Counted from the first letter of the whole stretch, positions 7,490-51,000 are shown. The stretch: DNA of 54,562 nucleotides, filler included, from Sluysia triapertura (GCA_046118255.1; 4 parts of 4 records of this genome joined end to end with filler, not necessarily neighbours in it), one strand, 5' to 3'. A program made the numbers and translations. The notes: a model not told the origin generated them from the sequence alone.

Positions 7490-8345
7490 ATGTTGTTGTG
7501 GTGGCCAACGCATTACTTTAAATATTTTATTTCATCAAGACACAACAAAATAATTTTTTAGAACATTTTATAATTCTTAATATCTTCCAACATTCTAAAC
7601 ACAAAATTTCATAACATCAAAATCATATTCAACATGGAAAGTCATCAAAAAATACACTTTAAAAATTAATATATCACACACAAAACCACAAAACACTTTA
7701 CCTATTATACTATCAAAACCTTTTTTAAATTTTATTTCTTCAAACCCACTAGAACTATTCTTTTTTTGATACATCTTTAAGTTACAATTTTACGACACCA
7801 AAATAACTTCTATATTCAAAATCATTAACGCACATTAAATTTTATTTAAAACATTTTAACCCATAATTCGTAATATTGGAATTCACAATTACATCTCAAA
7901 TTATCATATATACACCTTAAATCAATCTAAAATATTTCAAGTTTACAATCCTTAACACTCAATCTCTAATATCACTGAAAAACATTAAATTATCGCTTTG
8001 AAACCATTTTCGACATTGCAATTAAAATAACATTCCTTTAACATTTTAGTTATCAATTATTTTCTTCAAACATTCTTTTATCAACTCATATCTTTGTAAT
8101 CACGGAACAAATCTCTTTCAAAGGAAATAAGAATTATAATCAATATTTCAAAAGCATTTAAAGAAAGAAAGGAAGTATGCACATAATCAAGAAAGAAAAG
8201 AACTAAAAACGATTTTATTTAAGGCATTAAGTTAAGAGAATTTTAGTTTATAATAAACCATTTTAAAGAAATTTATTATTTTGAGAAAAAAGATAATAAA
8301 AGAAAGATTGTATAAAATATTAACAAAAGAATTTATGTTTCTATT
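7490..8345 (+). mobile_element. Decayed L1/Tx1-like RT tract (leader of composite copy C)
   Basis: Nucleotide similarity to 44480-45065 (TGTGGTGGCCAAC..ATTACTTT; ATTTAAAACATTTTA; TCACAATT). Fragments read CCGGQRITLNILFHQD and ILSKPFLNFISSNP, resembling L1/Tx1 GRxIxDN and EPLxxxIRxN. Strong C/A skew. Confidence 0.45.
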
Positions 8346-8414
8346 TTGTTTTTATTATTACTAATATTATTTAATTATTATTCAATAATTTTAATTTTAA
8401 GTAATTTACATTTG

Positions 8415-8628
8415 TAACTGCCATCAATTGACAGTTTTAATTGAAATAAAACTGTTTCTATCCTATTTGTTGTCAATTACTGACAGTTATACAGGCAATC
8501 AATATATGAGATTATGTGAGTACACATGCTCGCAACTTCAATTATCTTTATACACCAATTGATTTGATGTCCAATCAAGTCTATTTATCTATTTTTATCT
8601 TACTAATTAGGATTGGACGTCCAATCAA
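8415..8628 (+). other. Double-hairpin module, copy C
   Basis: Imperfect IR 8415-8434/8470-8489 (TGACA/TGTCA core) followed by IR 8559-8576/8611-8628 (TCCAATC/GATTGGA), ending TTGG-ACGT-CCAAT (4-nt spacer; 3-4 nt in other copies). Confidence 0.7.
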
Positions 8629-8832
8629 CATGGAAAACATCAAATTAAAAATAGGCAATTTTTATTTTTAGTTACACAATTGTTAGCACTGATACAACAG
8701 AAAGTACGATATAATAATATTATTTAAAAGGTATTTCGTAAAAAAATTATTACCATTTAGTAACTCGTAAAATAATTGCGATGCTCACATTTCATAAACT
8801 GGTTATTTCAAAATAATTAAGGCATTCCAACA

Positions 8833-9960
8833 ATGTATTTTAATAAAATATTTAGTTCTTCATTATATGTGCTGTTCAAACATGTCAGTAGAAATATTGT
8901 ACTCGACTTTCAAATAAATGATGATTTAAAATTTAGTTATGTTAATTATTCCGTTAACGCCAAGCAAATAAAAGATGATGGATTCAAGGACGGATTTATA
9001 TATTTTATATTTTATGTATTTTATAATTTATGTATTTTTATATTTTTAAGAACAAAGTAATTATTCAATAAATAAACATAGTATGTCTCATGAATTACAC
9101 TTAGCACTAGTGAACGTTAAAAACTCTTTAAATGATAAAAATAATGAAATCTGTGTTAGTTTAGTGCCAGAACAAAACATTAGTATAAAAAGCCTACCCG
9201 CACCATTCTATATATCTCAATTAAGAGAAATATCTATGATGAATAAGAGCGATAAAAAATTATAATCATAATTCTAAATCAAGCCTATATGTTAAATTAC
9301 AAAATGACAAAGCAAGATGAAAGTATGGATAGATTAATAACAACAATAGAGGATCAAGTTACACTAATACCTATTAATGTATTCCTACCGTTCTACAGAT
9401 TAGTATATGTTAATTCATTTGTCATGACAAAGAAAGTACCATCGTTGAAGACAAATTTATCGAATGTGAATTCAAAAATTGGTCGTTTAAAGTCATCTTA
9501 TCGTTGTAGCAAACATCTATACATATGTCTATAAATTTATGTTAATGACAACAAACATTATAAGATGGCTCTCCGCCCGTGTGAAACCAAACCAACCGGT
9601 GAATGTTTTAAATGTGCTAGAAAATGTAGTTATTGCCATGGTTTCGATAAATTTAAAGATTTTGTCGGTCATCCTGCAGATCTCAATGGACACTAGGAGC
9701 GAATAAATAACCTCTTATCTAGTTCAGCAAGTTCATCTCAATATTCTCTGCAAATATGTTCATGCAAATATTCTCTGTCAATGCGGTGAACGTTCTCAAT
9801 TTCAATCGCGCTGTTTCTTCATTGGACCAAGTGACACAAGAAGACATAAAACGAAAGATATGAAAACTACAGGTGGCATGTTCAGGAAAATTTTAGACAA
9901 ATTAGAAGTTTTAATGTTACAATTTTGATAAGATTTAAATTAAGAGTTGGTTCACCAAAG
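8833..9960 (+). pseudogene. Decayed mosaic coding tract including RSPH9 (radial spoke head 9)-like fragments and a Cys-rich segment
   Basis: MSHELHLALVNV, IKSLPAPFYISQ and ESMDRLITTIEDQVTLIPINVF..VYVNSF resemble recalled RSPH9 segments (MDADSLLLSLEL, ILGLVADYYIAQ, ETRLVSVIDQIDKAVAIIPRGAL..HVNRTF) in the right order. Downstream reads CFKCARKCSYCHG. Several stops. Confidence 0.5.
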
Positions 9961-10759
9961 ATATCACTACCAAGTGCCAATGGGCGACGTTAAGTATTTT
10001 TATCTAACATCATTATTAATTTTATTTGTAAATTATGTGCAGCTTTTTCAGCTACACTGAAATACAAATATCGGCGTTGGCAGTGACAACTTTATTGTCA
10101 AATTTTTCCAGTTTATCTTCTGTTGACATTGGCATAATAAAAATAATCCGATGACATTGTCAAACAAAATAACCATCAATTGGAAATTTATAAACTAATT
10201 TCTATTAATTCTAGAGAATAAGATTATAACTTAAAGTGCTTGAGATATTATGATTTCGTTGTTTTAAGGGTTAGTGTTGGACAGTAAGGATATAAAGATT
10301 GATGAAGTATTTTATGTGAGTTTAAAATAAGATTTTATGCGTGTATATAGTATTTATAATGTAGTATAATCGCAATAGATGGTTGAACTACCACACCTAA
10401 CCATAAACATTTAAACAGTTTGTTGTGTTTATCCGTTTACTATTATCCCTCTTTCATAACTAAAGAAAAATCAAATAAAACTAAATCTCGATATATTCTC
10501 GATATATAACACTTATACAAATCAAATCATTATATGACAAATATAATTCTATAAATCAACTTCTTTATATCACAGTTACAGTTATATAAACCAAACTTTT
10601 ATATAGTTAAAACACCTCTTTAAATCAAATTCTTTAATAATTATTGCCTAACTCTTTAAGAATCGCAGGGATTACACGACATAAATGTCTTTACCACAAA
10701 TAAAATATAAAATAATGATAAAAACAAAACGAATCCTAACTAACCACGTAAACTTATTT

Positions 10760-11520
10760 TGTCTCCATGTTATTGCTGAATAAAAAGACTCAATGAGTGT
10801 TACCCACCATGGAAGTATTCTCCGGACACCATTTTATGGCGCATATGTCTTTGGGGTTTAAAGTTGTTTTCAGTTTTAGACGTTAATACAAGTTAACTAT
10901 ATTGTTGTTCAAATAAGAAAATAATACACGTGTCAATACGTTCGTTTTGAATCAACTCATAAAAAAGTTTAACGTCTTAAAGATCGTTCTACTACTACAC
11001 TTTAAAAGAATTATATATAAAATTATATTGGGGTTCGTCAATGTTTTTCTTTTTATATTTGAATACTGAGTTTCTTTCAATTTATAATTTTTTAACAATT
11101 TGCTATGCTTCGTATCTTTAAGTATTAATTTCGCAAATCTAATTTTAAAATTATTAAAATATTTATCATCATTAGTTTCCATAAAACGTAACAAAATTAA
11201 TTTCTCGTTTACAAAGAACCAAAGGACTTCACGATTAGTACTATAAAAATTTATTAATAAAACATTTAATGTTATGAATTTCCTACAAAAATAAATTATA
11301 TTAATATTAAAGATTTTGTTTTCTGCCTTTATTTCTTTTGTAGACCTCTTTCGATACAGACAACACCGTTGGGCTTCACTGATCCGAATACTAAACATAT
11401 GAGCTAAAATAAAAGTCAACACATATATGAAATTAAAGCTTACACTAGTAGATTCGATTTTGGTAAAGATTTGATTAGCTAGCTCCAGAAATCCTCTGTC
11501 GATCAGTTTGTAGATATTAA
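10760..11520 (-). pseudogene. Truncated member of an unknown protein family, paralog of 34091-34927
   Basis: TFILAHMFSIRISEAQR..NDDKYFNNFKIRFAKLILK..KNYKLK aligns with TFILVYMFDSWISEEQQ..NDDNFFDNFETQFTKFILK..KKYKIK over about 150 aa. Confidence 0.7.
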
Positions 11521-11780
11521 AAAGTAAACATTTTTGTAAATAAAATTAAAAATTTGTTTAATTAAATATTTTTGTAAAGTAATTAATTAGTACAAAAGAT
11601 ATTGTTTAATAAAAACTTTTATCTACCAAAAAATTAGATTAGCGTTTTAGAAATAAAAAACTATTTTACTAAAAAATTAGATAATAAAACTTTTTAACCT
11701 ACATAATTATAATTATTTTATGCTTTGAATTGACTCTTAATTTTTATCAAACAGACATATACGTCAGCAAAAAATAAATT

Positions 11781-12110
11781 ATAAATAGCTTACGATTCTA
11801 GTAATTTTTCATAACAACACAATAACTATTTTTAAAAGATTTGATTCTTGTAAATCGATTGGGATTCTTGTGGTTTAATCACACGTTCAATACTATTAGA
11901 ATTTTTATGCTTTAATCATCCAGCTGGGACTCTTATAGCTAATTTATTCAATTAGTATTTTTGTGGCTCAATTATTCGACTCTTGTGGAGAATTAGATTA
12001 AAATAATTGTGGAACGTCGTTGGAGAATAAATATTAAATTGGGAAAGCAGACATTTGGAAGCAGCATTCAGTTTTATCAAATTTCAAAAAAATAATCGTA
12101 AGCTATTTAT
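11781..12110. mobile_element. ~330-bp MITE
   Basis: Perfect 17-bp terminal inverted repeat ATAAATAGCTTACGATT (11781-11797) / AATCGTAAGCTATTTAT (12094-12110) with a non-coding interior. Confidence 0.7.
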
Positions 12111-12588
12111 TATAAGTGTTTACAAAAATTTACTGTATTAAAATCTACTCAAAATCATATTAATTTTCCACACCCAAGTATTCACCTGGGTTAAAATCAC
12201 ACTAAAATCTCATTTAATAATTTATTTAGGAGAAATCCTAAAATTGATATATTATTGTTATTATTTACACTCGTCTTATTAAATTTTTCTTATTTACCCG
12301 TGTATCATTGAATATTTTATACTTGTATTATTAATTTTGTAAAGAATAAAAATTCATAGAATACCTATAGTATTAAAGTTTGTTTTTGATTTTATATTTA
12401 GTTTGATTCATAAAGAAGTGAATCTAATATAAAAAGGTACAATTAATTAGTAGTTAAAGATATAAATAAAGACCCTCCATTGTTAGATAGTAAGGACTCT
12501 TTCGTAGCACTGACACATTAAAATCCTATAACTAAGTCTTCTGTGAGATATAAAACTTAGATTATAGGCGGACCCGTTTAACGTATTT

Positions 12589-13721
12589 TTATAATTGTCC
12601 AGTTAAGTTTTTTAATAAAATCTGAACAAGCTCATTCTTTGATAAGCTGCTCAGTAACAATTTACTAAAATAGTGATATTGTTTGATTTCATATTGATCC
12701 CGATTTCTTTTGTAATAATCATTATACGAGTTAAATAATTGACTCTGGTTAAATTCGTGCTCGAAACATCTTAAATAGAATAATGCATTATTCTCCAATA
12801 CTGATTCATTACAAATATTATAGGAAAGGCATCGTTTTGATTCAACATTTCTAGTTCCAACCACATTAACTTTTAAATTACTAATTATAAATCGAATATT
12901 TTGCGTCTTGAGTAAATTGTCGTTACTTATATCGATACATCGTTGACATTTGGGAAGGACATCATTATCAACTCTAACAAAATATGTAACTTGAAAATGT
13001 GACATATAAATCAATTCTAAACCTAACATTCTCTAATGATAAATTCATATAACTGTCAACGATAGATTGTAGAAAGACAAGATCATCATATGATGGTTGT
13101 TCTTTGTTGATACAATTTATTCCTTGTTCGACTTTTTCGAGTTGCGACGTCGTTGGACAAACGATAAATGACAAATGGGTATTATACGCATAATAATTTA
13201 CTAGATTAAGAAATTGAATCGATTTGTATAATGTAACTAATAAATACGGATGACCAAAGTACATATCTTTATCATGAAAATAATTTGGATTTTGTAACAT
13301 AGTACTTATAAGATGAAAAGTATTCTGGACTGTTGTCGGTTCTTGCGTCGAAAATTCTGTCTTTAAAGATGGTTCTATTTGAATATGGTTAATCCGAAAA
13401 CTAAATTTGATAGGTTGTGGTTCATTATTTAACATAATTGAAGGTGTAAGCAACATAAATTGGCTTTTTCCAATATTTACTAAAGTAACTATTATTGTTG
13501 AATGTGGTAATTAGTTCATAATTAGTTATTATATTGGAACCACCGACAGTCGAATTAGGACATCCATTATTGATGGTGTTGATAAAATTATCATTGCTAT
13601 GATATGAAGATAAATGTGGTATGATTTTATTAAACATAGAGAAGGTCCGTGAAAATTTAGCATCTATCATTACTCTTAATTTTATATTTGAGTTATAATG
13701 TTTTTCTTTTGAAAGTTCCAC
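12589..13721 (-). pseudogene. Frameshifted ~370-codon unknown coding tract (cargo of copy A)
   Basis: Three overlapping minus ORFs in successive frames (13721-13425, 13456-12974, 13029-12589), starting ~100 bp after hairpin module A. No family recognised. Confidence 0.55.
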
Positions 13722-13826
13722 CGTTTTCGATTAATAAAATTTAATTGCATATAATAACAAAAACTCCTCTAATAAAAATTCAATTGAGAACAGTAATACA
13801 ATATTTTTAATTTTTAGAGCGTTGTT

Positions 13827-14002
13827 ATTGGTCATCCAATCGAGGCCTTTAAAAATTGATACATGTTAAATTAGGTCTCGATTGGATGAGATAGGTAAGA
13901 TTTTAATTACTAATTAATTTGAAGCCTAACTGATGACTGACCATCATTAGCGCTGACAGTCTAATGAGAAATGTAACATAGGCTGTCAACACTGGTAATG
14001 GT
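13827..14002 (-). other. Double-hairpin module, copy A
   Basis: 17-bp IR 13832-13848/13873-13889 (one G:T) and 24-bp IR 13940-13963/13979-14002. 13826-14217 is collinear with 35537-35921. Confidence 0.85.
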
Positions 14003-14217
14003 AGTAACCAGATTGATCGTCAATTATAAAATTTTATGAAATTTATTTTAATGTTTAACAGTAATAACAATAATAATAATAAAATTAATGACATTGTGGT
14101 TATTATTATTATTGTTATTGAAATAAAATGCATAAACCTTATCTTTAAAGACTTTACACGATCTGTTCTTTTAAATTCTTTAATTTCTCACATATATAAA
14201 GTAGAAAGAAGAGTAAA

Positions 14218-14317: not shown

Positions 14318-14335
14318 ATTTATGGCAAGCTGTTT

Positions 14336-14386
14336 AATAATAATAATAATAATAATAATAATGATAATAATAATAATAATAATAAT
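14336..14386. repeat. (AAT)n microsatellite
   Basis: Direct reading. Confidence 0.9.
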
Positions 14387-15241
14387 TTATTATTATGGTT
14401 ATACTATATTTTCAATAAATCTATTTTTAAATTGTGTTTAATAAATTAAATTAATATTAATGAAATTATATTTTAGTATAGATATTTAATTGAAACCCAT
14501 TTTTAAAACAGCAGTTATTTTTCAACCAACAGTTAATTTCTTATTTTATTCCTGTAACACTTTTAAAATTAAAATTGATAAAATATATTTCAAGATTAAA
14601 AACTTGCAGGTCTTTATACTTGTCGCGTAATTGAAATATTTCACTAAAGCATACAATAATATTTTCTGCAAAATTATTTTTTATTTCGATCATGACACAA
14701 TGCTTATGCACACAAATAATTACAAAATCTATTGGTGGAGTTATTTTCAGTTCACATTTAAATCAATGTATAGAAGTAATTATTTAAAAATGAATGTATT
14801 TCACGTTTAAGTGGGTAAATGTAATAAAACATAATGGAATGTATCAAATTTTCTATTATTATCATTATTATTATCATTATTATTATTAATTATCTCATCA
14901 TCCTTTCGTTTAGAATTTGCTATTTTATTTTAAAAATTATACTTTAAAAAATTATATATAATCAAATCACAATATTGATGCAGTATATTATCAAAACTAA
15001 AATTAATATTTTAAAAATAATTTAACTACTTTGATTTAATAATCTATAAAAAAATAGATAATTTTGTTGCAAATGAAACAATGTGGAATAATGTTACAAA
15101 TGTATTATTGGTCAAAGAATGTTGCCAATAACACACTGAAGATGATCGTATTAGCTAGATAAAATTAGCATCGTATTATATATATAAATAGAACGTTACA
15201 AAAATCTAGCCGAAGAATACATTCTGTTATACCTCATAAAA

Positions 15242-15296
15242 TGGACTAGCCGGGAATCAAACGTAGGACTTTCTCGTTCTACCCAGTGAGTTATCA
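15242..15296 (-). pseudogene. Degenerate second copy of the tRNA-like element at 6305
   Basis: Reverse complement TGATAACTCACTGGGTAGAAC-GAGAAAGTCCTACGTTTGATTCCCGGCTAGTCCA-TTTT versus TGATAGCTCAGTGGTAGAGC...AGAAGTGCCGGGTTCGATCTCCGGTCAGTTCA-TTTT. The anticodon arm is deleted. Confidence 0.55.
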
Positions 15297-17414
15297 ATAA
15301 AATAAAAATAAAATACTATCATTATCATTATTAATAATTATTTATTATATAAATTAAAATAATATAAATGCAAATTTTTGGTCGATTTCTTTTTATTGTT
15401 AATGAATAAAATAAACAATGCTGATTATGGAACTAATAATCAAGGTAGCTGTTACTCGTAACTGTAGCTAGGTAACTATAACATGTCAAAATAAAGATTA
15501 ATAAAATTTTTTTGTACAAAATTAATCTATTTATATTTATCAGTAGCTACAATGTAGAAATATTTTGTTATTGTGTTTGAATATTTTTATAAACATGTTT
15601 GATTATTTAAAATGTTGATCAATAATTAATTAGTTTAGAAATTTTATATCTTTTTTCAATTAAATTTTTATAGATATTTTATTAAATTATTTAAAGATGT
15701 TTGAAATATTTTAAAAAATAATAAATAATTGGATCAAATTTAATTGTAAAATGCGAAGTTTAAATCAAATATGAGTAGAAAAATGTGTACTGGATTCATT
15801 TATAAATATTGTTTTAATATTCTTTATAAAAATATAAAAAAATTATAATTCGATAGGTGAAAAATATTTTTTATTCGTTTATAATTATTATTGATTTAAA
15901 AATTAATACAATTTATTAATGCAACATTGACCAATAATAATAAAATTGATAATAATAATAATAAAGAAAAATAAAAAATGTTAAGAAAAATAATGCTTCA
16001 TTCAACAACTGCTGAATTTTAATTTTAGATATAAAAATTGATGTTATATTAAAAAATAATTTTTTTAAATACAATTTTGGTAAATAATGTTCTGTCATAC
16101 AATTCAAACATTTAATCAGTTAATTCACTTTTACATATTCAAAAATACTTTATAAATAATTGTCTAGACCTTGTTATATTCATGAATATTCAAAATCGAA
16201 ATTGTTAGGGGATTTTATAAAAATCATCAAATAATAATAAAAATAATAATAATAAAATAATAAAATAAAATTTCAAAATAATAATAATAATAATAAATAT
16301 TATTATAATACAAAATATATAAATATATGTCAATTAAATTAATTTATAATAAAGTTATATTTACAAATCAATACAAAATAAAATGACTAAAACTGAATTT
16401 TCATTGGTTATTTTCGACAAATTAAAAACTGAATACATTTTTTGGAATTTTGTTTCAAGTTATACTATTACTAATATTATATGATTTTACGATTTTTATG
16501 ATGGGATATTTTAACAAGTTATTACAGTATTAAATAAAAATGTTAGTTTGTTGTTCTTCGATTTATATTTATATTTATATTATTTTTATATTTATATTAT
16601 TAATAGAAAAACATATAATAGTTTTATAATCTACATTTTATGCAACAAATACAATTTTGAAAAATGTTTTTATGTGGTACTTTTTACATCTACGTTTATT
16701 TGTGTGTGATTATTCTGACTTGCTTTATTTGTGTTATTTTCGGATTATCTACTAGATCTTTGATTTCGAAATTGTGGCAAGAAAACAAGTTAAAAGGTTT
16801 AACAAATTCTCAAAACAATCACAGACTTGGACTTTGTAAAAAAACTTTAGCAAATAAGTTTCATGTTTGATTAAGAAAAAATTATAATCTCTAATCAACA
16901 TTAAAAATAAAAACTGATTATAAGTATCTGATGGAGCTATACAATGACCAAAACGATTACATCTTATGCATAAAAATAATCTGGATCAGACCATAATAGA
17001 AAAACCCCAATAAAACATGATACATTAATCTTATTTTTAAATATTTCCATTTATTTATATTGACTGATTTCGTAAAATTAAAACCAGCGAGACTCCCAGA
17101 GTTACTAAATAAATAAATTCGACTTTTTCTTATTTTTTAAAAACTTATAAAATGTGATTTCCCATTTTTTTACATTTTCAAGACAAATTAAATTAACATA
17201 TTTTATTCTTTATTAATTTTTGCAATCTTAATTTAAAAACAAGAAAATGTCAGATAAAATATTTAAAAAATATCAAATAATTATATTTAATTAAAATTCT
17301 CTGTCTTTGGGTGGTTTCGGATGGTGCGAATAGTGCGAATATATTTAGATCTAAATGAATTTTTATAAAAATTATATAGTCAAAAATTTTGTTTATATTA
17401 ATATTATGTATTAT

Positions 17415-17416
<2 letters not shown>

Positions 17417-17475
<59 letters not shown>
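17417..17475. repeat. (TAT)n microsatellite
   Basis: Direct reading. Confidence 0.95.
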
Positions 17476-17476
<1 letters not shown>

Positions 17477-18544
17477 TTTATTTTTATTATTTTTACAATT
17501 TATTCAGACATGAAAAGCAGAAAAATTTTGTTTAGAATTATTTTTTGCCACAGATTAAATAATCTTTCTGTTTATTTATTTAGTCTTAGTATTGTACAAA
17601 AGATAATAATTTATATCTTTCTTTTTAATCCTTCTTTTAGAAAATTATTTTCAAAAAAAATAAAAATAAGCAAAAAAAATTCAAAAATAACTATGAATTA
17701 AATTTAATTTGTAATAATTATTATAATTTATAATTTATTATAAATTTAAATCAAATTTAAAATAAATATCGTAATTATTTATTTAATTTTTTAAATTAAT
17801 TCAAACTTTTTATCCACTAAGCTCACTTAATAATTGTTAATATTATTTACTTATTTTTATTTATTAATTAAATTAATATTATTATTTTTTTCAATTGTTA
17901 ACAAGCTTAATTTCGGAATAGTGTGATTATTTAAATAAAATAAAAAATGAGTACATTTAGCTTCTTAATTATTCAATTCAACCCCAAAATATAATTATCA
18001 TAAACAAATTTTTAAACAAACGTCAATTCAAACTAACACAATTATTAAAAATCATCAAATAACGCACAAAAACAGGGAACACGAATAACACAACGGAACT
18101 CAAGATTCAACAAATTTTCAAAACAAACATAATACTTACATTAACAATTAGACACAACTACAATCTAAAATTTAATATTGTTATTATAATGTAAAACAAT
18201 AATATGTTGTCTTACAATTCTTCTATTATTACATTCATTATAATTGCTTCTTTCCATTAATTTTTTATTTTTATCATTTATCGGCATAAATACATTATAT
18301 TCATTATGCTATACTATTTTCTCTACCTTCATCTATAATTATTTATTTAAAAGCAGAAATATCTTTAATCGAAAGTTTAACTGTAGTAAAATATTTTTCA
18401 TGTATTTTCTACGTATATAAAATAAGACTGTAAAACGTATTAATAGTAACACGATAATTCATTATTTGCTATTACAATCATATCTGAATAAAAATAAATT
18501 TTAATCGAATATTAAATGAATACTGATTCAATGTTGGTATAATA

Positions 18545-19100
18545 ATAATATATTAATTTATAATGCGCTCATATCTACTACAAAGTAAGTACTCAAAAGC
18601 GCTTAAAATAAATCACTTAAAGAAAGAACTTTGCTTTTTTCTTAAATATTTCATATTCATCCTGTAATATGATTATTATTATTATTATGTCTCAATGAAA
18701 TTTTCATCTTGGTTTCCAAATTTTTTATTATTTCTAAGTTATAATAAATAAATTATTGTCATAATTGTGAATTCTATTCTTGCTTTTATTGACAACCACT
18801 GTAATTCCTTAAGATAAGGTGTTACCTGGGATCTGCTTGATTAATTATTAATTGTAATTTTTTACTTTCTATAAGAAATTGAGCAAAATAAATCATTGTT
18901 AAAATCTATGTTGTTAGTTATCAATGAATGAACAATAAGTTTAGCTGTTTCTTTATTAATAAATTTTTGAATGTGTGATAATATTTTATTTAACAATATA
19001 ATTAATGTTTTCTTCCATGTTCATTTATGAATCCATATAATTTACATTTATTATTTAAAATGACTAAATCTGATCTAACGATTATGCATAGTGTGTTTAC
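18545..19100 (-). mobile_element. 5'-truncated L2-clade LINE remnant
   Basis: Minus strand reads KFINKETAKLIVHSLITNNIDFNNDL..KLQLIINQA..VTPYLKELQWLSIKARIEFTIMTIIY (L2 consensus AKxLVHALxxSRLDYCNSL..KLQxxQNxAAR..ITPxLxxLHWLPxxxRIxFK). It shares its 3' end with 43195-43520 and ends in a TTA/ATT tail. Confidence 0.8.
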
Positions 19101-19249: not shown

Positions 19250-19250
19250 A

Positions 19251-19298
<48 letters not shown>
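19250..19298. repeat. (ATT)n microsatellite
   Basis: Direct reading. Confidence 0.95.
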
Positions 19299-39800: not shown

Positions 39801-41230
39801 GTTGGTTATTGTAATATTTTTTTGTTATTATCCTACACAACCTAAGTCAACTGAGATGTGTGACTACATTATAGATTATGATATATGTCGTACATACGAC
39901 CTTTTTAGTTTTGTTAGCGAATATAATCTCTTCATTTGTTATTATTTTTTGAATAATTTTAAAATTTCAATTTGTAATGTAAAATTTAATAATGATCACA
40001 ATTTCTCTAATGATTTTGAATTAGGTAAACGTCATAACTATAAGGACCTTAAGTCCAATTTTTCTAATATTGAATTTATAATTTTTAATTCTAAAATCAT
40101 TAATAATAATACAACTCGACCATCACATTGACCTCTAGTTATTTTTGAGTGTAATTTAATAAAAAAAACTTAAATAATTTTAAAATTAACAATAACTAAA
40201 TGAAATATTTCCATTTCTTACGACTTTCTTGACTTGACTTGGAGTTTGATAATCATCATATCGGTTTGATTTTTAATGACATTAAAACTCTATATTGTAG
40301 AAAAATATCATTACAGTTCGAATTTCACTAAACTGATACTATATTATATACTAGTAGTAGTCATCAGCCAATAAGAATCGGTAGAGTAATATAGAACGTT
40401 TGAGAAACTTCTCTTCTATTTTTAGTGATAAGTTTATAAAATGTTTCTTTTTTCATCTTTTTTAATCATGACAATTATACATTTCTGCTTAAGAAGATCA
40501 AGATGTAATAGAAACTTCCAGCTCCATTTTGCTTAATTTTATTTAAACAAAAAAATAATATTCTAATTTTATTATTATTTAAAATATTATTAATTTATTA
40601 TTGCGCTATTTTATTATAAAGTATAGGTTTACATAACATTTAGTTTTAATATTGATCTTTTGATATTTATTCATTTTATGACTAAATATCCAATTTGAAT
40701 ATGTGTATTTCGTTTTTCTATTTGCATTCGAAAACTACTTTTATCAAATATATTGAATCAAATTCAAATAATTATCAAAAGATTTCTGAATATTTTTTCA
40801 TCAAATAACTTCAAAATTTAGCTAATTTTTTCAATGTGTAATTTATATTTAGAAATTATTTTTTAGAATTATTTATTTATTTACTTAAGTTTTCAATTTT
40901 AACGAACTGAACTGAATTTATGATACAATTCAGAAATTAATCATTGCTTTTCTCGCTTTACATTAACATAGTACAATATTTATAAATAATTTGTGAATAA
41001 AAGTGAAAATATTTAATTAAAATATTTTATTTTTATTATGCTTTAAAGACTGCTTCAACGATATCTAATCTAAATTCAACAAACAAACAATTTAATCTAG
41101 AAGAATACTTCTAAATATGCTTATTTAAATTAAATGTTGAATAAATATATTTATATGTAGAACTTATATTGTGCTAACAAAAATATGAAAAATCTTATAA
41201 AATCCTTCTGAATAATTTTTTATACATTAA

Positions 41231-41525
41231 CCTTTGTCCGTCAACCGAATGTAATTGTGACGTTTTAGTCAACCTGGGGGGGGGTAATTTTACCCCCCAG
41301 AATTTTTACCCACCGTTTACGTTAACGTAGTATTACATCATACTGAAGAGAGNNNNNNNNNNNNNNNNNNNNNNNNNNNNNNNNNNNNNNNNNNNNTTAA
41401 TTAATTAANNNNNNNNNNNNNNNNNNNNNNNNNNNNNNNNNNNNNNNNNNNNAAAATTCTGGGGGGTAAAATTACCCCCCAGGTTGACTAAAACGTCACA
41501 ATTACATTCGGTTGACGGACAAAGG
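41231..41525. mobile_element. piggyBac-type termini flanking an assembly join
   Basis: TTAA-CCTTTGTCCGTCAACCGAATG... and ...CATTCGGTTGACGGACAAAGG-TTAA. At least 73 bp of inverted repeat, identical apart from G-run length. Confidence 0.85.
41353..41452. other. Artificial assembly join
   Basis: 44 N + TTAATTAATTAA + 44 N. Confidence 0.95.
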
Positions 41526-41757
41526 TTAACTAAAAATGGTGATCTTATAAAATTGATCTCATCTTAACAAATTACACTGGTTACCCATATCACAAATGCT
41601 TACGCTATTATTTTTCCAAGATAATAAAAAAAGTTGAATTTGATTGATGTACGACGTTTTTATTTTAGTTGTTGTTATTCCAAGTAAACTCAGAAAAATT
41701 TAAATTACACAGTGGCACACTAATTACATATGAATATGTTCTAAATTAACTATTAAC

Positions 41758-44242
41758 CTTGATCTCGATCAAAATTCGGTTTATACCATAAATCTTCACA
41801 CGCTATTACATTTTGCAACGTTACAAAATGTTCTATGCCAGAATCATGACCTTCTCGGTATGACTCACCTCGAGTTTGCCAACTATTAGTAACAGTTTGT
41901 TGTTGCTGCTGTTGATACTGAGGTTGTATGTAGCCAGCACTCGTATTTGTAGTTCTCATAGTACTCGAATATCCAGTTTGTGCTGGACGCGGTCTGGTTG
42001 AATTCGAGAAAAAATGTCGTTCGTTAGACTCATATGCTTGGTTTACATTGCGAGCACTGAAATTTCATTAATTGAACAGTTATTGTGTAGTCAAATAAAA
42101 TAAAATAATTCAGATTATCATTTGCATTAATACATTATTATTTTTATTTTTCATTTAAACACTTATTTCCCTATGAATGTTGTAAAGTTGGTGCTGCATA
42201 AAGAATTGATAGATTAAATTCAATATTTCATAAAGTGAATAAAATGATAATCTAGATGAATACTGCAACGACGTTTAGAATATTACGATCAAGGAAGATT
42301 GCTAAATGAATAGTCGCGATTTACCCTATGATATTTCGAACAATTTTGAAGGTAAATCAAAATTGGTTCAGATTTAATACGATTTTGGACAGTTCGTATT
42401 ACTAATAATAACACGATGCAATAGAATATAAAGTAACATCAATTCACTTGAAAGTGTTAGTGCTGAAAATTTTAATGTGCAAAAATGCATTGTCTTTTCT
42501 TTTATTCGGGAAAATCCGATTTATGAAATCTACTACAACAAATATTATTTATTTATATATTATAAAATTGACTCACTTTCTTAGTGCAAGATTAGCTACT
42601 AATTAACATCAATATATAATTATTTACAAATAATATTTTATTTGGCATGTTGATAGAAAAGTAGCTAGTTTCAAATATAAACTATAAGTAAAAATATAGT
42701 TTATTTAATTTAGTATTCCAAACTATGTTAAGTAATTAAATTTAATGTTATAAAACAGTTTTCTATTTCATTTTTTAATTTATAGAAATAAAATTAGCTT
42801 ACATGAATGAAAATCTCACATTAATATAATTTTTGAATTGTTGAAAATATTAAACCAACCTTTGCACTTTATTGAGTCGATGAGCAGATATTGGCATAGT
42901 ACTATACATGTTCTGAGGCTGCAAATGACTCGTATGTTTATTTTCATCACGAAAGTAACTGGTTGATTTCATCGTGTTTGTTGCGTCGATAACTGAAATT
43001 TTAAAAACAATCAATAATAACAATAATAATAAAGGGATTCCACCCTTATTTCATGGATTGTTAATTTAAAATTTAAATTTAAATTTTGTAAAACTGAAAT
43101 ATTAAAAATCAAGCCACAGATATACTTGAGATATCAATGCAATTTGAAAATTTTTTTGATATTTCAGATTTAATAATAATAATAATAATCATAATATATT
43201 AATTTATAATGCACTCATTTACTGCAAAGTAAGTACTCAAAAACGTTTAAGGTAAATCATTCACCATAATATTTCTGAAACAGAAAGAATTTGTCCTTTC
43301 ATAATCTTCCAGTACTTTGACATTCTCTGGTAACTGGTTGTATATTTTTGAAACATAAACTATTACCTAGCTTATTATCACTGTGGATTCTGTATAGATT
43401 ATCACGCCTCAATGAAATATTCATCTTAGTTTCCAATTTTTTATTATTTCTGAAAGACATAATGTAAGCATTTGTAAATTATTGTCATGATTTTGAATTC
43501 AATTCTTGGCAACCAATGATTAATGACACTTTTCAAAAAGTTCGAAATATTATCCAGCACAATTCATGCAGAAATAATAACAGAATTATTTATTATTCGT
43601 TGATTATAGATAAATCGATCATAAACATACTGAACAAGAGAATTAAGCATTAATTCAGATTTGAAAATATAAGATTAATTGAAAACATTTAGAATTTTGA
43701 CTTAGAATTTATATAAGTTTAAAAGAAGTTACTGTGCTACAATTATTAATTCAAAAAATTTAGTGAATTAAATCGAACATTAAATAAATTTGTGCATTCC
43801 CATCGCTATGAACAGCGACAAATTCGAAAACAACCTTTAAGAAATTATAATTTTAATAACACTCGATATAACTGCAAATGAAATTTATTTGTTGCAGTTT
43901 GAATTTACACATTTAAAAGCATCTATAACCCGATCTATAAAAATGTAAAACCTTTAAAGCAAAACTTAATGATCATAATAATTAAGAACAGTTTTGATAA
44001 CAGTTGTTAACTTTACACCACCAGATAAAGATAGATTTTTGTAAGTTATAAATAAAACATATTTTTATTTAGAGTATTAAAATTTAAACATTATGTACCA
44101 CGAAAGAACACTTACTCCTAGGTGTTTGTGCACGACTTATAGGTCGACTTAAAGTTACTCCACTGGCCAAATCCTGCACACCTTTACCAATTGGTTGTAG
44201 AGTTATTGTTTCTACCTCTTCTGTTGTTTCATTGGTTCTTCT
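41758..44242 (-). CDS. TNS: Tensin-like gene, three internal exons (44242-44116, 42992-42860, 42056-41758) leading into the SH2 domain
   Basis: All three exons have AG/GT boundaries with compatible phases (0/1, 1/2, 2/1) and are stop-free. The last ends CEDLWYKPNFDRDQ(G|gt), matching the tensin SH2 start WYKPxISREQA. Confidence 0.75.
43195..43520 (-). mobile_element. L2 LINE 3' remnant inside a tensin-like intron
   Basis: Reads HWLPRIEF..IIYKCLH..YNQLPENVKVL. Nucleotide similarity to 18556-18790 and 1402-1465. Confidence 0.75.
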
Positions 44243-44479
44243 CTGGAATTATAATGAAAATGATTTTATTTAAAATGATTATTTATTTTATAACAATAAT
44301 AACAATAATTTGACTCTTGGGTTGTCATCACAACCCTTTTTAAAATTTAAAACAATACTTAAAAACAATTTACTGTACTAAATTAACCTCATTTTTCAAT
44401 AAAATAACTTATTTTCTAAAAAAGAAATTTCCTTACTAAAAATAGAAAAGAAGTTTCGAAAACATTCGATTTCCATTGG

Positions 44480-45065
44480 TTGATTGTGGTGGCCAACCTA
44501 TTACTTTTAACAAATTTTATTAAATTTTTTTCTTTTTAATACAACAAAAATCACATTCACCTTCAAAATCATATTTTAAAAACTCATTATAAACATTTTC
44601 ATACATATTTCAATACCAACATAACCAAAATCATACTTTTCAACATCACACAATTACCATTTAGAAGGTACCAAAACATAGGCTATAATTTATCATCTTC
44701 GCATCCATTAAACTACTCTCTTTTAAATATATTTGTAAATCACAACCTTTTAACATCCAAACATCACTTTCATTTAAAACATCAATGTATATTTAGAAAT
44801 TCACATAAAACATTCATATTATTTTAGAATACTTACATCATACAGCTAAAAACATTAAATAGCATTTAAAACATTTTACGCATTATCTTATAACATTAGA
44901 GTCACAATTACATCTTTAAATTTTATCGAAAATGCGTAACAGGAATTTCAAACTCTATAAGTTCACAATTCTTTAATTCACACAACTTCAAATATGTTTA
45001 GAAATAATGAAAGAATTAGAAAGAAAGTTTGTGATATAATTTTTGAAAGGATTTGTGCAGTTTAT
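44480..45065 (+). mobile_element. Decayed L1/Tx1-like RT tract (leader of copy D)
   Basis: TGTGGTGGCCAAC at 44485-44497, similarity to 7490-8000, and ends ERIRKKVCDIIFERICAVYN (about RIxxxxVCxPKxEGGLGVxN). Confidence 0.5.
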
Positions 45066-45141
45066 AATAATAATAGTGATAATAATTATGACATTATTAT
45101 TATTATTATTATCATTTTTATTTTTATTATTTTAGTAATTA

Positions 45142-45297
45142 CTACTAGCAATGGTGACACTATTGCTTACTATGTATAAATTCTTGTCACAATTGATAGC
45201 GGATTGCCTGTAAATCTTATTCATTTTTATGTTATTAATATCTGTCCAACCAGAGTGATTGTTTTCATTATTTTATACCTCTGGTTGGACAGCCAAT
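45142..45297 (+). other. Double-hairpin module, copy D
   Basis: IR 45142-45159/45185-45202 (GTGACA/TGTCAC core) and a perfect 14-bp IR CTGTCCAACCAGAG/CTCTGGTTGGACAG (45242-45255/45279-45292), then CCAAT. Confidence 0.8.
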
Positions 45298-45454
45298 CTC
45301 AACAGTTAAAAAATTTTTATTTGACTTATTGTCATTAAAAATTAGCTCAATCAATATCATAGCGGTAAAAAAATTAATATTTCACTATTGACGCTTAATG
45401 CACATGAACGAGGAAACAAATTATTCTCAATTATCAAATGTTCATATAAACAAT

Positions 45455-46260
45455 ATGTCGAAATTTTCAAATATTTCAATCAGTATTAATGTTCCATTAC
45501 TTCAAAATGAGCCTGATTTATTAAATCAAAATCTTCATTAAATATCCGAAACATTAAAGAGAGCACAAAATAAAGTGAATTTAAAAAAATAGAAAATCCT
45601 AGTTTAGTTTCTAAAGAAGTGCCTTCAACACAAGAAGTTATTAAAGTTACATTGATTTCATTAGGAAATAATCAACATGTTTTATTAAGTGAGCAGTCGA
45701 ATTTAGAGAGTTTGTTGACTGGTGTAAGCAATCCAGGAGTTAAATCATGCAGTCAAATTTTGCCTTTACACCAATTAACTACATCAAATACATCAAATCT
45801 TGAATCTATACAGAAAGTATTACCAACTTTAGATTTGTTTAATGCTGGAAATTTGAATTTATCGAATGTAAGCAATTATTTTTCACATAGCACATCGTTA
45901 AATACATATAATTCTCTAAATTCATTATTAAATATTGTTCAAAAATCTTTAACAAATGTGAATACTGAAGATATGGTACATTTGGTATTCTAACAACGAA
46001 TATAAGCATAAAGTTAATCTTAAATAAAGCTCGACAAATTAACTCATCTAAGTTAAACAAGAATGATTAAAATAAATGTAAAAATAGCTCTGAGAACTGT
46101 CAAGTATATCAATATACCGATTCTCGTAATGAACAAATTCCTAATAATGTATTAATTTAATATCTTTCCAACAGATCACTGTTGATTCAATTCGATACAA
46201 ATACATCCATGACTTGCCAACTCCAAAAATATTTGACAACATTGGTCCCATTAATAATTA
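45455..46260 (+). pseudogene. Decayed S/N/L-rich coding tract (cargo of copy D)
   Basis: ATG at 45455 (MSKFSNISISINVPLLQNEPDLL), a stop and frameshift, then ORF 45619-45993. No family recognised. Confidence 0.5.
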
Positions 46261-49082
46261 CAGGGTAAATATTTATTGTGATGACATTAAAGATAATTTA
46301 ACTTTAAATTCTTTTTTAGATCATGAGACATGGTTACCAAAATTTTGCATATAATCTATATTTAGAAAATATATATAAAAATCTAATTGTGTATAATTAT
46401 ATTTAATTGTGTATAATAATTATGTTGATAATCAATATCTATATAAAAATCTATGTTAATAATCAATATCTATGTAGAATAATAATTGATCAAAAAATAT
46501 GATCTTTCAAACTACGTTCTAAAAATAAATTTTAATACATTTTGTTTTAAAATAAATAATTTTGTTAAGATATTTTAATATTAATTGCAAAAATATTTAA
46601 ACTTCTAATTTTAACTGTAATATTTAAATTTTAATTTGGTATTATTATTACTATTATTATTATTGTTTTTATTTTTATTTCTTTAAATACACTAAATTTC
46701 AAAAGGTAAGTCAAGGTGACAAATTTTAGTATATAAGACGTTACATAAATCACATAATACACACAGCACAATTTGTATACTTCACAATTGACAACACGTA
46801 ATTCAAAATTCGTAACGTACAATTTTTCAATTCACAATTCACAATACACAATCAAGGATAATTTTTAAATTTTGAAGCAGTATCGTCAAATCTTGTATAG
46901 CAGACAAATTTTAGCTTTGCGAAGGAATTTATTTATATGTTAAATACGTTAGTTTTTCTTGTAAGTTATTACAGTTTTAATTGTTTGTAAATTCTGTTGT
47001 ATAATATTTTATTTTCAAATCCCCTTTTTTAAGAAGGAGGAAAAGTCTTTAAATTAGATTATATTATAATCTGAAAAATATTATAATTGTCTTCTGTTAT
47101 ATTTTATATTTCAATTTTATATAATTTATTTAATAAATATTTTTACTTGGAAACTTTTAAGTTTATTCAATGATTTTAAGGTCCCCGATTTTATTCGGAG
47201 GTAACGTATTACATTAAAATTTTGAAAATAATCGAATAAAGTAATTAATGTACGCCGTTCTTACACGGTGGGAAACTACAGGTAAAATACTTTTGAAGTT
47301 TTGTTAATTTTCAGTTAATTAAATAACCAATTTGCTAACATAGAAATACAGATTTCTGCATTATTAAGTTTTCATTCTGCTAAGAAAAAATCTGTTTGAG
47401 AACCTCCATAATTTTCTTCTAAGATACTGCCTGCAACTTAGCCCTTAAGTGTGTAAGTCTAAGATTGTTGGGAACTCACGTCAAGAATAAATAAAATTTT
47501 CTTTACCTCTTCACATCCTGCTTTTTTTAACACTGTGATAGTAATTATGATAACAATAACTACAAATTTATGGTAATTATACATTCGACCGTGTTTATGT
47601 TTTGAATGTATCGAGTAACTTATTTAGCATTTTATATATGAAGTGTTGATTCGTGATTGTTATGTGTAGATGTGGATTTGGAGGGTTTTTTTCTTTTAGT
47701 ATTAAAAATGTAAAACTTTATGATTAGTCTGTTAACTAAATTTATTAACATATTTATATTTTCGTTTATTAAAAAATATTATCAAAATATTAAACTTTTT
47801 AGCAACTGATAAACAATTTAACGAAATAGGCTTAATGCTCTCAAACAATAAATGTGATTTTAAAACCAAACCAGCAAAGCTTAATTTTTTATTAGATACA
47901 AAAAAGCAGAAAAATAGCTAAATCATCAAATATGAATAATAAATGATAAGTTATAACATGTTTTGTACTTCAGATGGTCGTAAATGCTTCGTTCTAACAT
48001 TAAAATTGTTACCGAGGTTGGATTCTACTGCCAAACAATCCAAACACATTTGCATAACATAATAAAAATACTATTAGAAGACATTTAATCAGATTCATAA
48101 CATTAATATCATTTAGCTAATAAAAAATCAATATGATAATTTTTTATTTAATTATTATTAATTTATTATTCATTTATTTTATATTTTCAGATTAACATAG
48201 TGATGGATTGTGAAACAAACAATAAAACTCAACACAAATGAAAAATATCAAAATAAAATCCTCAACTTTCATTTTGTCCAAGATGTACTACTAACAATAT
48301 TTTGAAATAATGCATGAATTAACCACTTTTATAAAAACAGTATGTGTACGTATCGTAATTAAAATATTTAACGAATAATAGGATTACTATGAAATTAATT
48401 TTATTGCATCACCAAAAGTTAACATAATAAAAATATTTGTAAATAAAAATCATTTAAGTATATTTTCATTTTATTTTAATTTTTATTGTTATTGTTAACC
48501 AAGTTGCACTGTTTACTTTTGTCATTTGACGTAAAAATAAAATTGATCGAAATATAAAATGCTCATTTTAATGACATGTTTAATTACAAATGACAACTAT
48601 TTATTAGATATGTAAAAAGAATTGCAAAACTATCTATATAAAAAATTATACAGTTATTATTATGAATATTAATAAATATACACTTGAATAAAATTAAAAT
48701 TCGATACTAGAAAACGTTGAAAAATAAAATTTGCAATAAAGTGATACCATTTTTCAAATGAATCGTTCTGAAAACCAATCAAAGTTGTTATAAAAGACAA
48801 CAAAAATATATATACAGTGATTATAAAATCACAATTAACATCATCAAGTGTAATTTGTTCGATATATTGTGATATAATTTCGACATTGAAAACGAAGACA
48901 TTATTTAGAAAGCAATTATTTTATCGCTAAAATAAATTTTATATTATTATTATTATTAATTTTCAGTGTAAAATAATACGATAAAATTTAATAAGATTTT
49001 ATTTAATAGATTAGTCACTTTTATGTTTTGTTACTAGTCAAATTGACTAGACTTTCAATATGTCAAAAATAATTTTAGGGTT

Positions 49083-49991
49083 TTTACTTTTTCACTTTAA
49101 TGATGCACATAAATCTTCTCAAAGTATCACATGCTTTTTCGAAACTCATTTGTTTATAAAGTTCTTGATTGGTGCCTATTTTCAGTTCAACTTGTGCTTT
49201 TGCTTTTCTTTTTAAAATCTCTGATATTTCCTTGAGCCTCTTTACATATCTATGGATGTCTTTTTTAATCTTTTTAATAATTCAGTTATTGTATCAAGCT
49301 GAATTGTAAATTCATCTTCGTCTACTTCAGAATTCCATATCTCATCTAATGATTGGATAAATAAGTTCACATAAGGTTGTTTTCTACTTTAAAACGTATG
49401 AATGTTATAAATTTTAATTTTGAATGGGCCAGTAGCTCTTTCTAAATTTATGTCGTGCTTTTGAATAGTGCCAATAGAAATAAAATGACCAGATTCACAC
49501 ATACATAAATATATACAAATTCATACAAACAAAAAAAGAAATAAAATGAAAGGTGATGCGTAAAATGAAATAGTAATGATAGTAATGTTAACAATGATAT
49601 AATTGTTATATTTTAAAATGATGATGTTGATGATATCGTGATGTTATTATAAGAGTTACTAGATGATAATCATTATAATCATATTATATAACAATAACGG
49701 TAATAATTATTATATATTTTAATACGATTGGGTTTATAATAACATTAACTATAGTTTATGATAATTATGTACAATGACTACATTTTGTTGTTTGAATGAG
49801 TCAAGTAGTTTATTTAGTGTTCTGTGTATGTAAGAAATGTTTTTATGTAATGAAGTTTTGACATTTTGATATGATTTCCCTGCAATGGAGTTCATTACAA
49901 TGACGAGGTAGTGATAAACAATATCGTAATGTGGATTATATATATTATTTTTTCTGTGTAATTTTTCTTTTATTCCTTTTTTATAATGCAA
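49083..49991 (-). pseudogene. Decayed coiled-coil-like coding tract (cargo of degenerate copy E)
   Basis: 49505-49083 reads nearly open (LFIQSLDEIWNSEVDEDEFTIQLDTITELLKRLKK / DIHRYVKRLKEISEILKRK) with one stop and one frameshift. ORF 49749-49991 lies upstream. Confidence 0.45.
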
Positions 49992-50229
49992 TTTTTTCGT
50001 TTTACACTCATCAAATTTTTATTTTCAAAACTTTTTAATTCCATAATTTATAGGTGCATAACTTTTTCTCTTATCATGTTGGCAGATTACCTGCATACGA
50101 TGAATGATGACAAAGTATGTACTACTTATTGGCTTGACAGCCATTATGATTTTTATATGTAATTTTAATTAACATATTTATTATTGTCATTATTATTATC
50201 ACTATTAAAATATAATTGATTCTTTCTTT

Positions 50230-51000
50230 TTCTTCTTCCTTTTCTTGGGATAAACATTATATTGACATCAAAATTCAAACACTGCGGATGAAAATGGATA
50301 AATAAGATATTTTAAATAAGTTTATGAGTAAAGAATATTTTCGTGGAAATAATTTATTGAAATTGAGAGGTTTGAAGGGTGTTTGAGTAAATAAGTCGTG
50401 GAAGGATTGATTTGAAAATATATAAGTGTCACAATGAAGTATGTGGGACAATCAAGATAATGAATTTATGTGGTAATTTGGTATGTTAAGAATTATTAGC
50501 CTTGTGGAATGATTACGCAATCTAGAATTGTCGAATTTATAAGATAAGTGAACGATTAGAAAATTTTTGAATCGAATATATATATACAAAATGGTCTAAC
50601 ATAAAATAATTGTTTTTTGATAATCTTGTTATTTATTTGTAAGGATGAAAATAATATTAAGCTATTATTGTTGTCAATGTTCAAAGATGAATATTTGAAA
50701 TTGCTGGAAATTGTTGTTGGTGAGTTGAGTTTTCTGAAAATATTAAGTGATTATTGTATTCTGTAATGGGTTTTATCAATTGTTGAAGGTCATTGTTGAT
50801 GGCATCGTATGATTTATTTAAAGATTGTATATTTGTGTTGGAAAGGTAGTTTGTGGAATTGAGCGGAGTCGTGATGACAAAATTATGAATTAGCAGTTGG
50901 GTCAGCACAATTTTCCCAAATAGATGAAAATCTATTTTTAAATATAATAAAATAAAAATTAAAGGCGGTTCCAATGATAGGTAGAAAATCAATTTTACTT
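50230..51000 (-). mobile_element. Decayed L1/Tx1-like RT tract (leader of copy E)
   Basis: IFYLSLEPPLIFILLYLKIDFHLFGKIVLTQ resembles LFxLxLEPLLxxI..I.G..L.G..V. Followed on the minus strand by AATAGTGATAATAATAATGACA, as in copy D (AATAGTGATAATAATTATGACA). Confidence 0.5.

Follow-up and report, generated by a model that had tools for sequence, protein, structure and literature searches.

A candidate gene-carrying transposon with a promoter-like arm in Sluysia triapertura

A 54,562 nt stretch of Sluysia triapertura DNA (GCA_046118255.1; filler included), hereafter the window, consists of four joined pieces (1-14217, 14318-29655, 29756-41352 and 41453-54562) with a GC content of 16-32% per kb. 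Dispersed within it are copies of a repeated arm that carries a terminal motif, a G-poor tract and a series of inverted repeats, and behind which lie open reading frames (ORFs) that we refer to as cargos. Copies with the full layout are termed A, B, C and D, a doubtful one is termed E, and short arms that we added are termed F, H and I. Copy B can be delimited as an entire unit of 2,567 bp (34041..36607, minus strand) that reads TGTGG...CACCCA and has AAATTAC on both sides. The reading that we tentatively prefer, and to which we give somewhat less than an even chance, is that copy B is a non-autonomous gene-carrying (Pack-type) transposon that is moved in trans by a transposase or integrase, and whose arm likely acts as a promoter.

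Several features point to the boundaries of copy B. The heptamer AAATTAC stands directly before TGTGG on the left (36608..36614, minus strand), and on the right (34034..34040, minus strand) it follows a terminus that reads CCCCAAAACACCCA. This right end (34041..34062, minus strand) comprises three copies of an 8 nt C/A repeat ending in CA (3.0 copies of period 8 according to TRF). The homology between copies A and B stops at this position, which serves as an independent pointer to the same site. A resembling right-end motif that also ends in CA is found in copy A (10846..10860, minus strand), and in both copies this C/A motif lies just past an ORF that they share. By chance, AAATTAC was present in 93 of 5452 sampled 47 nt segments.

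Contigs from a single public sequencing run, possibly the assembly's own sample, were placed on positions 31900-38150 at 80% likeness, and the depth of exact contigs (11.6-18.8) was taken as the baseline. All statements on contig joints are based on the best 15 of 37 joints and on seven entries for the letters between joined parts. Joints at 36607, 36608 and 37543 coincide with motif starts. From two of these, the contigs continue at 34039 and 34019, the place at which A and B cease to be homologous. One contig (depth 13.3) resembles an empty site, in that it joins 34019 to 36608 with nine letters between, seven of which match TTGGCTT just outside the right repeat. Three further contigs link the flanks of B less precisely (33791-36674, 33809-36833 and 33848-36658, with sides of 24, 33 and 73).

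In both flanks of B, one and the same phase is the most open. The downstream flank (33731..34033, minus strand) has no stops in 100 codons and is likely the second half of an interrupted sequence, and upstream of 36614 this phase has two stops in 60 codons, versus 10 and 7 stops in the other two. A direct comparison of flank with flank revealed that they are not repeats of each other. We read B as a 2,567 bp insertion with a 7 bp duplication in repeated coding-like sequence, given one copy and one precise contig. Specifically, a transposase or integrase acting in trans would cut and paste the 2.6 kb TG...CA unit, and its staggered cut would leave AAATTAC on both sides as a target-site duplication, as the empty-site-like contig suggests. 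A flanking duplication favors a staggered cut over rolling-circle movement and plain segmental duplication.

The arm itself begins with the motif TGTGGTGGYCAAC, which is present exactly at 7497 (plus strand; C), 44485 (plus strand; D) and 36607 (minus strand; B), compared with 0.0002 occurrences expected from base composition. The TGTGG start is exact in all three; copy A is cut by a join, and its start is not visible. In the 300 nt 3′ of the motif the C-G skew is 0.73-0.76, versus −0.09 to 0.14 before it, and G content is 6-7%. A relaxed motif built from these sites yielded seven matches in the window versus 0-2 in 30 shuffles, and at six of the seven a C-rich tract sets in, with a skew of 0.49-0.77 when measured over 200 nt. 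As background, 101 of 4249 windows had a skew of at least 0.5. Three arms that had been overlooked in the initial annotation were among these matches, namely F at 2338 (plus strand), H at 37543 (plus strand) and I at 10395 (minus strand).

As delimited, the tract measures 834 nt in C, 768 nt in B and 571 nt in D. The motif and tract of B occupy 35830..36607 (minus strand; 6% G), where frame searches found no coding signal. With their hairpin modules, the arms of C and D extend over 7497..8630 and 44485..45302 (both plus strand), and what is visible of A is a tract end with three inverted repeats (13827..14217, minus strand). Short arm F covers 2338..2640 (plus strand). Arm H (37543..37850, plus strand) is back to back with B and starts at one of the contig joints. 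Arm I (10084..10395, minus strand) bears TGACA/TGTCA repeats, and the DNA of 9930-10200 folds with a z of −2.5 (2 of 200 shuffles); lying behind A, it does not align to the arm of B or C. Pairing C with I or D with E as inverted arms, or A with I as direct arms, gave no alignment and no duplication, and right ends of C and D were not found.

The layout proposed earlier for A-D, with a TGTGG start, a G-poor tract, inverted repeats and a CCAAT end, is real, and the copies do lie on pieces 1, 3 and 4 of the four. Copy E, described before as a degenerate fifth member, fared less well. It is devoid of the terminal motif and the CCAAT hairpin, its best profile match has an E value of 0.12, and it displays nothing beyond a tract poor in G and a run of AAT (50150..50975, minus strand), leaving its membership doubtful. 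The upstream flank of E is repeated in the window (29940-30266, plus strand, and 50950-51233, minus strand; z 8.7-10.9).

Most arms have diverged beyond alignment. Comparison of the leaders gave a z of 17.5 for A-B and 9.5 for C-D, and values of 2.9 or less for the remaining 19 of 21 pairs. The 13-mer TGTRGT..CAA that is kept across these diverged arms is a putative enzyme-bound terminus. Its retention in arms that have otherwise diverged, together with the TGTNR start and the CA end, points to a DDE transposase or integrase working in trans.

After the tract, the repeats follow in a fixed order. The first is the (AAT)n/(ATT)n stretch, which in A, B and D counts as an inverted repeat of its own. 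It is followed by a TGACA stem with as many as 31 pairs, and then by a stem that pairs CCAAT with ATTGG and has one more CCAAT behind it. In copy B these three repeats are located at 35770..35830, 35634..35724 (approximately 31 pairs with a TGACA core) and 35538..35595 (all minus strand); the last holds the candidate promoter sites, and beyond its bin contig depth drops to the cargo level. A module pattern derived from copies A-D themselves (CCAAY-N20-45-RTTGGA-N3-CCAAT) has four matches in the window, one in each of these copies, and none in 100 shuffles. Furthermore, the module folds better than 200 of 200 shuffles in every copy (z of −7.1 in A, −4.6 in B, −3.7 in C and −3.5 in D). Homology of the module is clear only between A and B (78% over 397 nt, z 53). 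The A-D pair reaches a z of 4.2, the C module has no significant similarity in any of five module pairs, and leave-one-out profiles fail to recover the hairpin module of C or D. C and D resemble A and B in layout and short motifs more than in sequence. The module pattern is absent from the JGI metagenomes, and an Rfam search of the window gave, on the module, only a sub-threshold microRNA match at the B hairpin.

When the 31 pairs of the TGACA stem are compared between A and B, 24 are the same, four have changes on one side, one has changes on both sides and two are broken, such that 29 of 31 are kept. The hairpins fold about equally on both strands, a property that fits sites in double-stranded DNA. 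When 12 hairpins were folded as RNA, the sense strand had the lower energy in five, the antisense strand in six, and one was a tie; a preference for antisense RNA was considered and rejected because it was not consistent over the 12. The first ATG with at least 25 codons is located 156 (A), 102 (B), 207 (C) and 100 nt (D) past CCAAT, in agreement with the spacing of 100-200 bp noted previously. Equal folding of the two strands, coupled with repeats that end 100-207 nt 5′ of an ATG, makes paired factor-binding promoter sites the simplest role. The hairpin end of the 1 kb arm thus likely serves as a putative promoter for the carried genes, and the paired CCAAT and TGACA sites would bind host factors. 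The CCAAT pair would be a candidate NF-Y-like site and the TGACA pair a candidate TALE-like site. Transposon-borne motif pairs that act as promoters are known (PMC9757741).

Arms appear to be far more abundant than the cargo of B. Summed contig depth amounts to 178-425 for the cargo together with the adjacent flank, 3,520 for the bin that contains CCAAT, 16,531 for the TGACA stem, 10,805-63,806 for the tract, 1,729-3,187 upstream of B and 9,954 for arm H. Division by 17.7 gives roughly 10-24 for the cargo, 200 for the CCAAT bin, 930 for the TGACA stem, 610-3,600 for the tract, 98-180 for the upstream region and 560 for arm H. At single positions, 95-100% of the summed depth shares one letter that differs from B (e.g. 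20,380 of 21,152 at 35682), as one would expect of a true family and not of low-complexity noise. These values, which are rough and come from one run, suggest that arms number hundreds to thousands and that the B cargo has only 10-24 copies. A small number of genomic copies had been named as evidence against a carrier; by summed depth the copies are many.

Two regions next to B are described here for completeness. Between arms B and H, positions 36608-37500 (minus strand) are coding-like, with a period-3 signal, a summed depth of approximately 98-180x and no Pfam match. Downstream of B, positions 32400-33450 (minus strand) hold broken coding-like pieces with a weak PHD-like match (E 0.007).

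The cargos are diverse, with one shared family. Copy B carries two orphan ORFs on the minus strand: ORF1 (35091..35435; 114 amino acids), which has no homologue, and ORF2 (34091..34927; 278 amino acids), which is intact, shows a period-3 signal and is common to A. Protein database searches found no homologue of this A/B family, and the fold model of ORF2 was not usable (pLDDT 46, pTM 0.38). The second cargo of A (10856..11497, minus strand) is 35% identical to B ORF2, with a nonsynonymous rate (dN) of 0.47, a synonymous rate (dS) of 0.93 and hence a dN/dS of about 0.5. Its first cargo (12589..13670, minus strand) is broken and is likely a distant paralogue of B ORF2, as suggested by two weak collinear pieces (E 0.029 and 0.011; z 5.2, second of 55 pairs). 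The broken cargo of C (8833..9930, plus strand) contains a CCCH-like finger near 9570-9640, to which a weak PDB match corresponds (1rgo, E 0.11, fifth of nine matches); no Pfam match was obtained. The cargo of D (45398..45993, plus strand), also broken, is unrelated to the other cargos in pairwise comparison. The earlier view that the first cargos are unrelated therefore holds for C and D, and fails for A and B, which share one orphan ORF family. Likewise, common descent of all cargos, which would have argued for simple duplication, is seen in part, with A and B homologous and C and D not.

Downstream of arm F is a CDP-diacylglycerol synthase gene in a broken copy (2837-3576, plus strand; PF01148, E 3.6e-9), which aligns without interruption over 2837-3454. 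Its named best matches are tapeworm proteins (three of five named, 55-57%), which makes a flatworm the likely host. Different subfamilies of the element would have acquired different sequence, of host or orphan origin, downstream of the arm. As a separate observation, an inverted motif at 2828-2840, just before the synthase copy, could close a 503 bp TG...CA unit with arm F, around which no duplication was seen.

The interpretation of B as a transposon has to be weighed against a number of findings. An exact flanking repeat of at least 7 nt after CA was present in one of five copies tested (B; not C, D, F or H), and C has an 8-mer at a similar distance that lacks the CA and emerged when three start positions were tried. 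A genuine terminal inverted repeat (TIR) is absent from B, in that TGTGGTG and the inward TGGGTG have about six letters in common by eye, and the similarity of arm ends was reached by 9 (D), 141 (C) and 784 (B) of 1000 shuffles. The right end of B is a short tandem repeat and its site is T/AAA, features that also fit retro-insertion. No transposase was found in the regions scanned, and database searches yielded no parental gene for any cargo of A-D. Finally, summed contig depth is not equal to copy number, and contig joints may stem from other repeats when they are called at 80% likeness or have short sides. The proposal of a Pack-type carrier in the initial annotation is supported for copy B, by its two ends, 7 bp flanking repeat and empty-site-like contig, and not for C, D, F and H, in which no comparable repeat is present.

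Among known systems, B would work most like multicopy Pack-TIRs such as Drosophila Ssk-FB4 (Pack-TIR/Pack-MULE type; PMC8277862). Ssk-FB4 is likewise non-autonomous, multicopy and duplication-flanked, contains internal gene sequence including an upstream region, and has an unknown mobilizer. It differs in having TIRs of approximately 700 bp on both sides, duplications of 9-10 bp and a known parent gene, whereas B has a single long arm, a short tail of repeats, a 7 bp flanking repeat and an orphan cargo. Because B has no such TIRs, we do not place it in this group. In the animal genomes surveyed there, Pack-TIRs are few and mostly single-copy (370 in 100 genomes; PMC8277862). The TGTNR start, which occurs at six arm starts, and the CA end are shared with Ginger1, Ginger2 and Gypsy ends (PMC2836005), but Ginger elements have TIRs of 40-270 bp and 4 bp duplications, neither of which is present in B. 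Duplications of IS481EU measure 4, 15-16 or 24-25 bp and those of GingerRoot 6 bp (PMC10045372), as opposed to 7 bp in B, which has no TIR and in which no integrase was found. Seven base pair duplications do occur in DDE elements such as Galileo (PMC4168063) and in some hAT families (PMC4455052). Galileo, a member of the P superfamily, also has long structured arms and a duplication consensus, GTATTAC, whose last five letters are those of AAATTAC; it differs by a pair of long TIRs that are almost identical and by remnants of a transposase, none of which was seen in B (PMC4168063).

With no TIR, no second long terminal repeat (LTR), and no primer site or purine tract, B does not fit any named superfamily fully. 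A broader proposal, which we consider unlikely, is that these copies represent an undescribed kind of asymmetric gene-carrying element. On one side it would have a long promoter arm that closes with three inverted repeats that covary, and on the other a short tail of repeats; its ends would be TG...CA, with neither TIRs nor LTRs, and its duplications 7 bp long. There would be thousands of arms with many different cargos, the mobilizing enzyme would belong to none of the named superfamilies, and the family would supply a flatworm with new genes throughout its genome. The open-access literature yielded no description of the arm family, which supplementary repeat libraries could contain.

The best surviving rival, although improbable, is a non-autonomous RNA element that would be copied in trans by an enzyme of the long interspersed nuclear element (LINE) type. 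Its transcript would begin at TGTGG, with the tract and hairpins as a structured leader, the 8 nt repeat as a tail and the 7-mer as a variable duplication. LINE insertion proceeds by target-primed reverse transcription and leaves variable duplications, variable tails and 5′ truncation across copies. The tandem 8 nt tail of B and its counterpart in A agree with such an origin, as do a 7 nt repeat that starts with AAA after T, the covariation of the A/B stems (one both-sided and four one-sided changes in 31 pairs) and the uninterrupted host-gene copy behind arm F. However, depth peaks at the supposed 5′ end, far from the tail, and C and D are without a tail of this kind. In addition, hairpin folding shows no strand preference, and a terminal 13-mer kept across arms that cannot be aligned better fits an enzyme-bound DNA end.

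Ranked directly behind it, and improbable as well, is the idea that a Gypsy-type family, present mostly as solo LTRs, has the arm as its LTR, with the cargos as LTR-mediated retrocopies or accessory ORFs. The TGTNR start fits that of Gypsy LTRs, the arm ends in CAACA or AACA a few nucleotides past the last CCAAT in A, C and D, and the arm is much more abundant than the cargo. Against these stand the occurrence of TGG after the arm in one of four copies (a comparison that did not include the host tRNA set), the lack of a purine tract before any of six starts (5-9 purines of 15), the absence of a duplication around the arm alone, and the lack of gag, reverse transcriptase or integrase matches. 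LTR elements usually generate duplications of 4-6 nt, and the 7 nt of B are longer, which we count against this origin. Long-LTR Gypsy elements occur in planarians (PMC6431247) and LTR-mediated retrocopying is a known mechanism in animals (PMC5131818). Such retrocopies resemble B as gene copies behind a potentially driving repeat that multiply further as non-autonomous units, but differ by a second LTR, a primer site and a purine tract; the second direct arm that would be expected from this model is missing at the right end of B.

Two explanations are considerably less probable still, and equally so. If the family consisted of non-autonomous Helentrons (HINE/DINE-1-like) that captured genes during rolling-circle movement, then the palindromes and the AAT microsatellite would be accounted for, and one contig has a head-to-tail-like joint from 36607 to 34039 (side 32). 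HINE and DINE-1 elements share very high copy number, palindromes, a microsatellite and a non-coding arm with the family, but insert at TT without target change and have subterminal inverted repeats of 11-15 bp along with a 3′ palindrome (PMC4067079). Here, TT precedes one of six starts, B has a 7 bp flanking repeat, and D is the only copy in which the similarity between arm ends may be significant. Alternatively, there may be no mobile unit, and a host promoter may have been duplicated segmentally with its gene family. This would be compatible with what A and B have in common (arm, ORF family and right end), with a dN/dS of about 0.5, and with CCAAT sites 100-207 nt before the ATGs. Such duplication conflicts with an arm depth hundreds to thousands of times that of single-copy sequence, the sharp ends, the flanking repeat and the empty-site-like contig.

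Terminons, which were initially raised as another possible carrier type (Athena; PMC6431247, bioRxiv 10.1101/2021.04.23.441226), have accessory ORFs and a C-rich, repeat-like 3′ end, and the B tail contains CCCTAA and ACACCC once each. They differ in encoding an Athena-type reverse transcriptase, carrying a hammerhead ribozyme next to telomere-complement repeats, being telomeric and reaching 40 kb, versus 2.6 kb in B, which appears to occupy an internal site with a flanking duplication. No hammerhead was detected with Rfam at E 0.5 and no reverse transcriptase in the regions scanned, and a hammerhead core pattern matched three times versus 1.96 expected in the window, with none at the B right end. 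Hammerhead-like cores opposite the cargo strand in A and B were rejected, as they occur at chance frequency and by eye lack the right stems.

The initial annotation had interpreted the tract as a decayed L1/Tx1 reverse transcriptase that stops at a CxPKxxGGLG motif. This motif is present in none of the six frames of the window, and the best stand-ins, CNPF*RQDLC (B) and CIKY*QKNLC (C), have two to three positions in common with it. No reverse transcriptase family of Pfam matched 36 X-read frames of six leaders, one of the six frames of the B leader had no matches among 1.84 billion proteins, and one E frame had none in the PDB. Chains of ordered short L1 or CR1 motifs were scored against 40 shuffles per test. 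The L1 chain on the sense strand was reached by 4 (B), 20 (C), 11 (D), 30 (E) and 39 (F) of 40 shuffles, and 17 of the 20 tests of leader, strand and model were at 4 of 40 or worse. The three best scores (1, 2 and 2 of 40) and a fourth (3 of 40) belong to the sense strand of E, the antisense strand of E in two tests, and the antisense strand of D; since both strands are represented, the signal is strand-blind. A by-eye CR1/L2 reading of the tracts was rejected after the same test.

A period-3 signal is absent from five of five leaders (reached by 37-80 of 100 shuffles). It is present (0-1 of 100) in the CDP-diacylglycerol synthase copy, B ORF2, the first A cargo, an intact kinase ORF and the upstream flank of B, and is nearly significant in the C cargo (5 of 100). 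B ORF1, the second A cargo, the D cargo (29 of 100) and a polymerase remnant recognized by eye gave no signal (11-65 of 100). The tract is probably non-coding; these negative searches have limited sensitivity to very old, frameshifted sequence, as illustrated by the polymerase remnant, which also lacks both a period-3 signal and a Pfam match. A reverse transcriptase of the L1/Tx1 or CR1/L2 type cut at one shared point is therefore the least probable of the explanations, since the homologous end of the A, B and D tracts and an E sense strand that beat 38 of 40 shuffles for the CR1-type chain are offset by an equal E antisense score (1 of 40), by sense strands of B, C, D and F not above shuffles (35, 33, 27 and 16 of 40), and by the failure of every motif, database and periodicity search of the leaders.

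If copy B is indeed a Pack-type element, hundreds to thousands of promoter-like arms, each capable of driving a different cargo, would be a major avenue by which a flatworm gains new genes. Moreover, knowledge of both ends, the duplication length and a likely empty site of one copy makes the class of the family directly testable. Should the arm prove to be an ordinary solo LTR or the partner of a LINE, it would still be an unannotated high-copy repeat, of modest interest.

Other features were observed in the window. The kinase ORF mentioned above (39014-39688, plus strand) is intact and encodes 224 amino acids, of which residues 149-212 match a protein kinase family (E 3.5e-6); by eye, a piece of a phosphorylase-kinase-gamma is fused to sequence of another kind, and no hairpin module lies directly upstream. 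The polymerase remnant (28650-29200, plus strand) appears by eye to be a decayed piece of a Polinton-type DNA polymerase B, which neither Pfam nor viral contigs confirmed. An 80 bp sequence at 41227-41306 and 41453-41529 (96%) is inverted across a join and ends in TTAACCTTT, which resembles piggyBac ends. A 49 bp unit at 44-92, presumably hAT-like, has perfect 14 bp terminal inverted repeats (CAGTGGTGTCAA), and its end resembles the arm motif. A tRNA-like Rfam match (6305-6376, plus strand; 37.7 bits) was not called by ARAGORN, and a second tRNA-like remnant was seen by eye at 31050-31110. Another dispersed repeat has three copies of 73-87% (1321-1466, 18539-18782 and 43185-43508), and an 81 bp tandem repeat of 2.4 copies occupies 30312-30507.

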